Sequence record: NC_028448.1
Length of the DNA stretch: 64,000 nt
Origin: Escherichia phage slur14
Direction: 5' to 3' (one strand)
Shown here: piece by piece, positions 28,859-33,527 of the stretch
Position numbering within the stretch: position 1 is the stretch's first letter
Layout of the letters: the number at the start of each line of letters is the position of its first letter
Position numbers and translations under genes: made by a program
The notes under the pieces: generated by a model
Told to the model about the DNA's origin: nothing
What the model saw: only the letters and a program-made list of their open reading frames with translations
Databases searched by the model: none

Positions 28859-30198
<1,340 letters not shown>

Positions 30199-30297: not shown

Positions 30298-30498
30298 ATG
30301 GTACAAAAATTAATGGCACTTGTTAATGCCATAAAAGGTAATAAAAAACGTATAGCTTTTACTATTTCTGCTATGGTAGGAATTTTACTCTGGAACTTTA
30401 TTTTATCACCAATTGCAATTGCGCATGGTGTTAATATTCCAGTAGTTACTCTTGATACATTCGTAGATCTAGCATTTGCTTTAGTTGGGTTAATTTAA
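30298..30498 (+). CDS. Small two-TM membrane protein (66 aa), encoded on the opposite strand to the flanking genes
   Basis: AAGGAGG RBS 4 nt before the ATG; hydrophobic; stop codon overlaps the primase stop codon on the other strand. Confidence 0.4.
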   Translation: MVQKLMALVNAIKGNKKRIAFTISAMVGILLWNFILSPIAIAHGVNIPVVTLDTFVDLAFALVGLI

Positions 30499-31523
30499 AT
30501 CTTGGCATATTTAGATAGCCGCATTTTAGCCATCAACCCCTGGGCAATATTATTTTTCATATATTCCATAATTTGTTCAGGGGTTGCACCTTCCTTTCTA
30601 ATCATATCATTAACATCTTTTGATTTCCAGGGAGATTTATCCCAAAACATAACCCTTTCTCCTGCATCAACTAATTTAGTCATTCGTTTAATAGTGTCAG
30701 GGTGACGAGGTTCATTATCTAAAACCCACACTCGTCTATCTTTAAATGGAACAACTTCTAGGTCTAATTGACCACCCGTAATAGCTATACCATTTTCAAT
30801 AAAAAGTGAATCTATAGGTCCTTCTAGAACATATACATCACCATCTTTAACTCGTTCGACTCCATAGATTTTTGTTGCTTCAGGATAAGCTTTGATGGTG
30901 ATATATTTTTGAGGAGCATCTTTCTTTAATGCACGTCCTTGAAACGACTCAGCTTTTCCATTAGCATTATAAATTGGAATAACAAGACGAGGCTCAGAAA
31001 TTTCCTTTTTATATGTTCCCGGTGCTATGCTATTAACCAATTTAGGCCATTCGGTTGTAAACCAAAGATATTTCCATTTATCCTTTGGAATACAACGAGC
31101 TTTTACATATTTTATAATTGGATGGTCTTCCGCCAGTTTATCTAATCTAACACATGACGGAAGAGATTTAATTATTTTCTTCTCAGGTTGTTTAGGAAGT
31201 TCTTTAGGTTTTTCTACTGGACGACTTTTACCTTTTTCTTTTCTTATTTCAAAGATATACTCACGATATAAATCAGGTTCAAACTCCTTTAAATATATTC
31301 CGATTGGTGCATGATAGTTACAGTTATAACAATGAATATTTCCTTCATTATTATCACCATAATACCATCCACGGGCTTTATTTTGGTCGGTTTTTGAATC
31401 TCCGCAAACAGGACATCTAAACCGTAATTTAAAAGTTGAACTATTATTTACTTGTGTGAATTTAGGTAAATGAGCTAATGCACGGTATGCAAACTCATTA
31501 TCAATCCAAGGTATTGATGACAT
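30495..31523 (-). CDS. 61: DNA primase gp61
   Basis: 342 aa; N-terminal zinc ribbon (CPVCGDS...CYNC) and Toprim region. Confidence 0.9.
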   Translation of the reverse strand: MSSIPWIDNEFAYRALAHLPKFTQVNNSSTFKLRFRCPVCGDSKTDQNKARGWYYGDNNEGNIHCYNCNYHAPIGIYLKEFEPDLYREYIFEIRKEKGKSRPVEKPKELPKQPEKKIIKSLPSCVRLDKLAEDHPIIKYVKARCIPKDKWKYLWFTTEWPKLVNSIAPGTYKKEISEPRLVIPIYNANGKAESFQGRALKKDAPQKYITIKAYPEATKIYGVERVKDGDVYVLEGPIDSLFIENGIAITGGQLDLEVVPFKDRRVWVLDNEPRHPDTIKRMTKLVDAGERVMFWDKSPWKSKDVNDMIRKEGATPEQIMEYMKNNIAQGLMAKMRLSKYAKI

Positions 31524-31526
31524 TTT

Positions 31527-31691
31527 TACTCTTCTTTTTCTTTAGATTCCTCTTTTTTCTTTTTAGGAATCTGTTCAGGACCTTTATTTACTACAGCACC
31601 TGATGTTGTTCCAGTAGAGATATTTTCAGGATTACCACCTGAATCTCCAGCAACCATATCTTCTTTAATAAATTCTTTATATGTTTTCATA
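31527..31691 (-). CDS. Small Lys/Glu-rich protein (about 54 aa)
   Basis: Hand translation MKTYKEFIKEDMVAGDSGG...KKKKEESKEKEE; below the track size cutoff. Confidence 0.4.
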
Positions 31692-32048
31692 TTAACCTCT
31701 ATTCATAAAAGCATTAAAAATTTGGTCATCAATAGATGGAATAGCAACCTTTTCGGCATCATTTAGCAAATCATTAATTTCATCAGATATCATAACACAT
31801 GTGCCTTTATTTCCTGTAATTGTTACTGCACAATTACGAACGTTTTCTTTATCAAATTTTAGGTTAATATTTTCGTAGTGAAAATCCTTTAATGCCGAAT
31901 ATATCTTTAAAATGAAATTGTCTTTTACTACAATAAACCCAACTTCACTATTAAAACGTGGTTCATGGAAACTGTAATAAACCTTTTCATCTATGAAATC
32001 GTATGAAATTTTTTCCATTTTTAAATATGAAAATTCAGAACTATACAT
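31692..32048 (-). CDS. Hypothetical protein (118 aa), paralogue of the C-terminal half of the adjacent 208-aa protein
   Basis: Shares VG.I.VKDN and an identical C-terminus SIDDQIFNAFMNR(G/D) with 32050..32676. Confidence 0.55.
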   Translation of the reverse strand: MYSSEFSYLKMEKISYDFIDEKVYYSFHEPRFNSEVGFIVVKDNFILKIYSALKDFHYENINLKFDKENVRNCAVTITGNKGTCVMISDEINDLLNDAEKVAIPSIDDQIFNAFMNRG

Positions 32049-32049
32049 A

Positions 32050-32676
32050 TTAATCTCTATTCATAAAAGCATTAAAAATTTGGTCATCAATAGAAACATT
32101 TACTTTAGACTGTTTTTCAGATGGCAATTCATATCCACATATTACAATTTTATGATCAATATCAAAATACACAGAAGCAATATGATTAATGATATTTTCA
32201 GTGAAGTCTAAATCGACATCAATATCTTTTTGACCAAAGCCCAAAGGATAAATAATGCGAGTAATTCGATTATCTTTAACAAAGATTCCACCGACATACT
32301 CTGTACTGCGTTTAAAGTCTACACGCCGACGAAATGAAAAATATTCAGGCTCTTTATGAGCTCGGCTCATAGGACACAACGAGTAACTAGAATAAGAGAT
32401 GTCAAATCCTACGCCTTCGATATGAGCCAAAGTGTCATGATTAAACCAATTATAATCGTACGCCAAATCCATTAGATTATAATATGTAAAAGGCACCGGA
32501 TTAACATCATTAGTCACAAGCATGTAATTAGCAACTGCTATAATTTCATTATTTTTAACGAATACAAACCGTGATTGATGCGAATGACCTGGACCCGCGT
32601 TTTCACGATTAATGATATAACACTGGGCACCTTTATATTTGTATGTATCTTTGCACTTGTGCATTTGATAGAGCAT
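32050..32676 (-). CDS. Hypothetical protein (208 aa; 61.2-like position)
   Basis: ORF in the primase-helicase interval. Confidence 0.5.
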   Translation of the reverse strand: MLYQMHKCKDTYKYKGAQCYIINRENAGPGHSHQSRFVFVKNNEIIAVANYMLVTNDVNPVPFTYYNLMDLAYDYNWFNHDTLAHIEGVGFDISYSSYSLCPMSRAHKEPEYFSFRRRVDFKRSTEYVGGIFVKDNRITRIIYPLGFGQKDIDVDLDFTENIINHIASVYFDIDHKIVICGYELPSEKQSKVNVSIDDQIFNAFMNRD

Positions 32677-32969
32677 TATTCACCTACCACTTCAGCGATG
32701 ATATTTTTATTATTAAAGTTTTTATCGCAATACAGAACATAATTATACTGCATTACACCACCAGACTTAAGCTGTTTTTGCACTTCAGCTTTCATTTCAG
32801 GACGATCGCGCTCAACGATATTCATAATATCTGCTTCAATTTGGGTTTCAACTTCAGTCTGATCAGCAGTCATAGACCATTCGCACAAATCTTTATCATA
32901 ACCTGCCATAGCAGGCTGAGCAGCACAAGAAGCTAAAGCAAAAATTGTAGCAAAGATAAATTTTTTCAT
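32676..32969 (-). CDS. sp: Periplasmic protein, Spackle-like
   Basis: 97 aa with a signal peptide (MKKFIFATIFALASCAAQPAMA); size and position fit T4 sp. Confidence 0.6.
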   Translation of the reverse strand: MKKFIFATIFALASCAAQPAMAGYDKDLCEWSMTADQTEVETQIEADIMNIVERDRPEMKAEVQKQLKSGGVMQYNYVLYCDKNFNNKNIIAEVVGE

Positions 32970-33027: not shown

Positions 33028-33327
33028 CTATTTTAAAACTTTTGCATAATCACATGTTACAAACTGTTTCTCTAGCTTGACGATTTTACGAAAGTATCTT
33101 TTGCATTGGCGAATCTGCCGCTTCGTAGGGCGAACAGCAAACTTAATAAATTCCACTCGACCAAATGGAGGACTTTCTTCTGCTGGAATATCTAATACCA
33201 ATTCCCACGTATCTGCAATAAGTGCTTTGAATTGTGTATTTTTCCTGACGTTATACGGAGTAGGTTTAAATAAAACAATATGCATATTATCCTCGGCAAT
33301 CCACTTCACATACTTTCTTGTCATCAA
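33028..33327 (-). CDS. Hypothetical protein (99 aa; 61.4-like position)
   Basis: ORF; basic. Confidence 0.5.
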   Translation of the reverse strand: MMTRKYVKWIAEDNMHIVLFKPTPYNVRKNTQFKALIADTWELVLDIPAEESPPFGRVEFIKFAVRPTKRQIRQCKRYFRKIVKLEKQFVTCDYAKVLK

Positions 33328-33469
33328 TGAAAGCTTTAACTAATGCTTTATTAACTTCAGCATACTGAGTAGTAGCCCATTGAACGTCATCTTTCATCAT
33401 TGTGATTTCTTTAGTAAACATGCTTTCATTCTTAAACCACCCCATAAAAACTACCTTTACCAATTCCAT
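33287..33469 (-). CDS. dmd: Dmd-like protein (60 aa)
   Basis: 60 aa, the T4 Dmd size, at the 61.5 position next to gene 41. Confidence 0.6.
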   Translation of the reverse strand: MELVKVVFMGWFKNESMFTKEITMMKDDVQWATTQYAEVNKALVKAFIDDKKVCEVDCRG

Positions 33470-33497: not shown

Positions 33498-33527
33498 TAC
33501 TATACCATAGTCTTGTCAGCTTGTAAA
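33498..33527 (-). promoter_or_regulatory. Early promoter (TTTACA-N18-TATAGT) with the -10 inside an inverted repeat
   Basis: GTTTACAAGCTGACAAGACTATGGTATAGTAGTCTTGT on the minus strand. Confidence 0.55.

Follow-up and report, generated by a model that had tools for sequence, protein, structure and literature searches.

The 64,000-nt stretch of DNA analysed here (the window), from Escherichia phage slur14 (NC_028448.1), is a segment of a Tequatrovirus genome that is 100% identical to Escherichia phage slur03 between positions 31400 and 32800, where it matches 538 phage records. Its minus strand carries helicase 41, dmd, 61.4 (tifA), sp, a 208-aa gene, a 118-aa gene, 61.1, and primase 61, in this order. 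The anti-toxin genes tifA and dmd occupy 33028-33469 (minus strand; Pfam Dmd, E=1.6e-46; tifA named from the slur03 annotation). The spackle gene sp (32676-32969, minus strand; Pfam T4_Spackle, E=1.3e-44) is the conserved upstream border of a variable slot, and its stop codon overlaps the start of the 208-aa gene (32050-32676, minus strand). The 118-aa gene (31692-32048, minus strand; phrog_4122) comes next, and gene 61.1 (54 aa, 31526-31690, minus strand) closes the slot. In T-even phages, this slot is occupied by a single gene or a pair of genes, drawn from a family of three types called here A (208-216 aa), B (116-125 aa), and C (approximately 145 aa); the 208-aa gene is type A and the 118-aa gene is type B.

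The 208-aa gene is adfA, encoding anti-DarT factor A (AdfA, gp61.2 of T4). Its product matches the Pfam family PF23813 at full length, from profile position 1 to 210 out of 211, with E=3.1e-136 and 451.9 bits (cutoff 27), and its DNA is approximately 98% identical to T4 61.2. With dmd and tifA just upstream, the original prediction of an anti-defence interval holds, in agreement with the description of dmd-tifA-adfA as an anti-toxin-antitoxin island (PMC9391042). AdfA blocks the DarT1 ADP-ribosyltransferase toxin through binding, and in the RB69 protein, the change R164H switches this binding on, so that His marks the DarT1-neutralising type of allele (PMC11257639). The window protein has His165 (ENIINH165IAS) at the equivalent of RB69 residue 164 and is a T4-type allele; in T4 itself, the His-type allele is not the main counter-defence against DarTG1 (PMC11257639). 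A promoter scan placed the best promoter-like site of the island at 33499-33527, with promoter-like sites at background level (23 found, 21.2 expected). The early transcript of dmd, tifA, and sp probably serves to express adfA and the type B gene as well, given that neither is disrupted and that purifying selection acts on each.

Two kinds of natural variation were seen in adfA. The equivalent of residue 164 is polymorphic, being His in the window, T4, and AR1, Asn in REP1, SG1, and Sf21, and Arg in the RB69-like protein. The gene is also mosaic: the first 170 nt or so (32510-32676, minus strand) are only 46-62% identical between the 208-aa allele (T4, the window) and the 210-aa allele (AR1, SG1, REP1, Sf21), against 76-95% (mostly 88-93%) over the remainder, and P0007 joins a 210-type N-terminus to a T4-type C-terminus.

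Relation of the type B protein to AdfA

The 118-aa protein had been taken for a relative of the C-terminal half of its 208-aa neighbour, and BLASTP bears this out, with 35% identity over 102 aa (E=5e-9). After removal of the last 14 residues, 37% identity over 57 aa remains in an unchanged register (E=3e-4). The body of the type B protein is approximately 30-37% identical to AdfA, the N-terminal half of AdfA has no counterpart in it, and the two gene bodies cannot be aligned at the DNA level. Against the Pfam AdfA profile, the 118-aa protein scores 34.3 bits (cutoff 27) at profile positions 113-211 only; this score depends on the tail, and the tail-less protein is no longer detected by the profile. 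Automated Pfam annotation already tags type B proteins with PF23813. Similarly, hhalign gave a weak match between tail-less type B and AdfA (P=0.005) from shallow profiles. An exhaustive HMMER search with type B added only three more clusters of type B proteins, and a family with so few matches is narrow and yields shallow profiles (Neff approximately 1.5), which limits hhalign. A fourth HMMER match, to a protein of 1,267 aa (E=4.5e-4), covered approximately 40 query residues and was rejected as apparently spurious.

Predicted structures extend the comparison. The AF2 model of type B has a pLDDT of 82, with the body above 90, and it is colinear with the C-terminal domain in the AlphaFold model of AdfA (pLDDT 70), both running through five strands, one helix, one further strand, and finally the tail helix. 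The motif G-(F/Y/G)-I-(V/F)-V-K-D-N occurs in type B and in the C-terminal half of AdfA and, in a weaker form, in the N-terminal half. Cys73 of type B stands at the position of AdfA His165 and is invariant in all eight aligned B proteins. Foldseek searches of the viral models in BFVD returned AdfA, type B proteins, and one type C protein as the only significant matches of either model, and no convincing match was found among solved structures or known fold families. Because the N-terminal half of AdfA repeats the element pattern of the C-terminal half and matches it weakly (hhalign, P=0.0009), AdfA looks like an internal duplication of a domain that type B has once.

The body of type B could instead be unrelated to AdfA, the tail being a property of the slot to which inserted genes are fused in frame. 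The dependence of the Pfam match on the tail agrees with this, as do the type C and distant type B proteins, which match Pfam AdfA by their tails only, and the comparison of B with C, in which hhalign detected no sequence similarity beyond the tail. However, the tail-less BLASTP match lies in the correct register, the predicted secondary-structure elements correspond one for one, and the motif recurs in type B and both halves of AdfA, which together make an unrelated body distinctly unlikely. Homology of the type B body to the C-terminal domain of AdfA is likely, if not proven.

Pairwise dN/dS values of type B range from 0.07 to 0.45, similar to those of adfA, and this purifying selection marks it as an old, functional, and variably present gene rather than a fresh local duplication. 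That type B might be a decaying, non-functional remnant is suggested by its dispensability in T4-type phages, but dN/dS well below 1, an intact gene in 297 records, a confidently predicted fold, and persistence between direct repeats that should favour its deletion render this scarcely credible. The most variable part of the protein is a linker just upstream of the tail (31737-31765, minus strand), found as NDAEKVAIP, NDTENITAP, or NEMEDITVP; it is longer by up to nine residues in distant B orthologues and is longer also in RB69-type AdfA.

The 49-nt repeat and its peptide

A repeat search of the locus found one 49-nt direct repeat, at 31688-31736 and 32046-32094, the copies of which are spaced 358 nt apart and identical at 48 of 49 positions. 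The ORFs are as first described, two adjacent genes of 118 and 208 aa ending in the same peptide, SIDDQIFNAFMNR. The near-identical DNA shared by their ends had been given as approximately 45 bp with one mismatch; the repeat and its single mismatch stand, but the repeat is slightly longer, at 49 nt, since it extends past the stop codon and takes in the following ATG. In coding orientation, it reads TCT ATT GAT GAC CAA ATT TTT AAT GCT TTT ATG AAT AGA G(G/A)T TAA T ATG; each copy contains the final 14 codons of a gene and its stop codon, followed after a single spacer base by the next start codon. The upstream copy thus consists of the 13 codons for the shared peptide at the end of adfA, an Asp codon, TAA, T, and the ATG of type B, and the downstream copy of the same 13 codons at the end of type B, a Gly codon, TAA, T, and the ATG of 61.1, the ribosome-binding site and start codon of which lie inside the repeat.

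The sole mismatch (31696 C, 32054 T on the plus strand) makes the final codon GGT (Gly118) in type B and GAT (Asp208) in adfA and weakens the Shine-Dalgarno-like GAGG to GAGA ahead of the type B gene. In the downstream copy, GAGG is at Shine-Dalgarno distance from the 61.1 ATG, and the last tail codons, (A/C)GAGGT, double as the Shine-Dalgarno sequence of the next gene. In all three genomes in which a type C gene precedes type B (C+B), the upstream gene has the Asp/GAT end and the downstream gene always Gly/GGT; this difference may tune the translation of the second gene.

The tail consensus of types A, B, and C is S(I/V)DDQIFNAFM(N/K)(R/K)(G/D), in which ten residues (DDQIFNAFM and the preceding Ile/Val) are invariant or nearly so in all three types. 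It is modelled as a short helix after a flexible linker, with low confidence (pLDDT 49-55) and a linker of variable length in the alignment. A sliding-clamp-binding motif was considered for the tail, but the fit to the canonical pattern is poor. Between genera, the fraction of identical residues encoded by the same codon is approximately 0.5 in the tail and 0.40-0.53 in sp, 61.1, and primase. Tail synonymous sites therefore vary as freely as those of the flanking genes, and it is the peptide, not the nucleotide sequence, on which selection acts.

The repeat might nevertheless be conserved as nucleotide sequence, chiefly for a regulatory role in the RNA, for instance as a hairpin for translational coupling that masks the next ribosome-binding site. 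In Tequatrovirus, TCTATT can pair with AATAGA in a hairpin that ends at GAGG, and stop and start codons are 1 nt apart. Against such an element, the folding z-scores are only -0.4 and -1.7, there is no covariation (2 of 10 pairs are broken in 9 of 17 and 12 of 17 family members), an Rfam search gave no match, and synonymous sites are free to vary between genera. On the z-scores, the covariation, and the Rfam search, it was rejected as the main explanation and is considered very unlikely.

Slot architectures and probable exchange at the tails

The original prediction looked to related phages, and among these, the 118-aa gene is indeed variably present. T4 has the order sp-adfA-61.1, and in an alignment it differs from the window by the absence of exactly 358 bp, which make up one repeat unit and the type B gene. 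T2, listed as lacking an adfA homologue (PMC11257639), has sp-type B-61.1, with type B exactly in the place of adfA. Genomes with B only retain TAGAGGTTAGTATG directly upstream of type B, a sequence that in T2 agrees with the final 14 nt of a tail at 13 positions. In RB69-like phages, a 216-aa AdfA stands alone; in Dhakavirus, the slot contains a type C gene of approximately 145 aa (phrog_8539) with the same tail; and in VR25/VR20-like (Gaprivervirus-like) phages and Yersinia phage P8, type C is followed by a type B orthologue of 116-119 aa, 47-48% identical to that of the window. Wherever the slot holds two genes, type B is the second.

Phage records with the N-terminal half of AdfA number 485, with type B 297, with the adfA/type B junction 156, and with type C 86, counts that include RefSeq/GenBank duplicates. 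These counts imply approximately 329 A-only records, 141 B-only records, and 156 in which both occur (A+B), and approximately one in four tail-bearing records stacks two slot genes. In Yersinia phage phiD1 (NC_027353, 1768-2318), an apparent second type B copy and a 33-aa fragment lie between adfA and type B. Runs of N and ambiguous bases fill the junction, and for this reason the extra copy was rejected as evidence of type B amplification; its probable source is misassembly or a mixed population, brought about by the 49-nt repeat, the alternative being real unequal crossing-over.

These architectures bear on the origin of the pair. The pair had been read as a partial tandem duplication. In one form of this reading, the 118-aa gene arose recently from adfA in this lineage, diverged fast, and had its 3' end re-homogenised, and the adjacency of the genes, their shared ends, and their weakly similar bodies fit such a history. 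This form is contradicted by the distribution, since type B orthologues (41-50% identical overall to that of the window) occur in other genera, beside a different partner gene, and type B stands alone in T2. Moreover, distant B proteins are approximately 48% identical, a divergence like that of the flanking genes, and the bodies are not alignable as DNA. A recent duplication is accordingly considered extremely improbable.

The near-identity of the tails is a separate matter. In the window, the tails agree at each of the 12 informative codons, two of which, GAC (0.22) and AGA (0.14), are minority choices, a degree of identity expected by chance with P of approximately 4e-4 under the window's own codon usage. 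The 3' ends are thus more alike in DNA than peptide conservation and codon bias explain, in keeping with the original reading, and sharing of every codon points to recent recombination or gene conversion within Tequatrovirus. Over the 49 nt, the two tails of one genome differ at a single position in the window, at 2-3 positions in five further Tequatrovirus A+B loci (from four phage isolates and an IMG/VR contig), and at 3-7 positions in C+B genomes. The second Asp codon is GAT in both tails of Sf21 and of L008, against GAC in other Tequatrovirus B tails. The divergent type B allele of Sf21 rises from 73-88% identity to 96% in the 60-nt tail block and is 91-100% identical downstream; allele boundaries coincide with the tails.

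The 49-nt identity could also arise with no homogenisation at all, from an invariant peptide, AT-biased codons, and a shared ribosome-binding-site and start context. The peptide is invariant across the family, the last 10 nt hold the Shine-Dalgarno sequence and ATG, and the type C tail of another genus (Dhakavirus phage vB_EcoM_005) is identical to that of the window at 46 of 49 positions, so peptide constraint and codon bias do explain part of the identity. They account poorly for the rest, namely the low chance probability of the 12 shared codons with GAC and AGA among them, tail synonymous sites that are as saturated between genera as those of the flanking genes, the GAT shared by the tails of Sf21 and L008, and a difference between T4 and the window of exactly one repeat unit plus B. 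An origin of the identity without any exchange is therefore regarded as unlikely, though less so than the other alternatives. The proposed 3'-end homogenisation survives in part: recent exchange within Tequatrovirus is supported, but such exchange is not the sole origin of a tail peptide that does not vary anywhere in the family. Recurrent recombination or gene conversion at the tail is supported jointly by the repeat-to-repeat difference from T4, the excess of within-genome identity, and the allele boundaries.

In the mechanism proposed, the tails, being direct repeats in the recombination-prone genomes of T4-type phages, exchange sequence and so stay near-identical within Tequatrovirus, and the same recombination yields the presence and absence variants of the slot genes. 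The A+B arrangement would be the ancestral Tequatrovirus state. T4-type genomes would have lost B by recombination between the tails, loss rather than gain being the presumed direction, and T2-type genomes would have lost A through a separate deletion that left the 14-nt stub.

Proposed function and known counterparts

As a whole, the locus is read as a slot for a family of three gene types that recombine at a common tail, with type B as a likely toxin- or effector-binding inhibitor of a specificity other than that of AdfA, a reading considered somewhat better than an even bet. Binding by AdfA is switched by residue 164, which lies in a helix of the domain shared with B, and type B is therefore likely to be an inhibitor with another specificity. 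It would act as a stand-alone protein that retains the specificity-residue helix with an invariant Cys there, and the flexibly linked tail helix may be a shared interaction module. T2 deleted for adfN loses four logs of plating on DarTG1; having B and no AdfA, it is sensitive to DarTG1 without adfN, which argues against activity of B on that DarT1 at native levels. T4 counters DarTG2 with another gene, tk.4/adfM.

A further idea is that the tail helix and the ribosome-binding-site/start junction form a combined functional and recombination module, the slot being a cassette-exchange site for anti-defence specificities. This is put forward tentatively, as a possibility that is doubtful at present. 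If true, the tail would be a common handle of all slot proteins, for example, docking on a conserved toxin, phage, or host surface, and its homology would let co-infecting T-even phages swap, stack, and drop specificity domains in frame.

Among known systems, the closest counterpart is AdfA itself (T4 gp61.2, PF23813), which shares with type B the slot, the C-terminal tail, and a body like its C-terminal domain with the specificity residue 164. It differs in having two domains in approximately 210 aa, against the one domain of type B in 118 aa, and in the His of its DarT1-neutralising alleles, where type B has the invariant Cys. The T4 anti-toxin-antitoxin island of dmd, tifA/61.4, and adfA is the same locus, likewise encoding small early proteins that block toxins and changing copy number by recombination at short homologies (Srikant et al., 2022). 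Those changes came from laboratory evolution (Srikant et al., 2022), whereas the variation described here is natural, concerns paralogous genes, and uses the coding tail as the homology.

AdfB of Vibrio phage ICP1 and other toxin inhibitors switched by single residues offer a second comparison, AdfB likewise being a small protein of a phage that binds DarT and so blocks it. In both cases, the natural alleles probably correspond to different variants of the toxin. There is, however, no sequence relationship, and neither a paralogue array nor a shared tail is reported. In 2010, Arbiol and colleagues reportedly described the shuffling of small ORFs in the hyperplastic regions of T4-type genomes through promoter-stem-loop cassettes. 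In those cassettes, as here, short repeats flank accessory genes and mediate their gain and loss, but the repeat of the present locus is a coding 3' end with a ribosome-binding site, and the locus has no excess of promoter-like sites.

AdfA and the island were already known, whereas a literature search brought up no account of a short paralogue, of type C, of an invariant tail, or of a polymorphism resembling cassettes. AdfA is one of few characterised phage inhibitors of DarTG defence, and in phages reported to be without adfA, such as T2, its slot contains a relative with one domain. Natural variants with A only, B only, or A+B can serve as near-isogenic comparisons, and together with the short protein and the tail, they provide experimental handles on the natural targets of AdfA-family proteins. 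In addition, the locus is a clean natural example of short-homology recombination shaping anti-defence genes.

Two further ORFs were noted beyond primase. A 186-aa ORF (29638-30198, minus strand; phrog_8706, function unknown) follows dam immediately, and at 29638 a stop codon and a start codon overlap. T2 and slur03 share this ORF, while T4 has an unannotated gap of approximately 310 nt instead. Its Pfam matches are weak, to the DpnII (GATC) restriction endonuclease (E=0.0045) and RE_BanI (E=0.009), and the ORF may encode the endonuclease counterpart to the Dam methylase of the phage. Between this ORF and primase, a hydrophobic ORF of 66 aa (30298-30498, plus strand; phrog_2024) is annotated in slur03, T2, and wV7 and not in T4.
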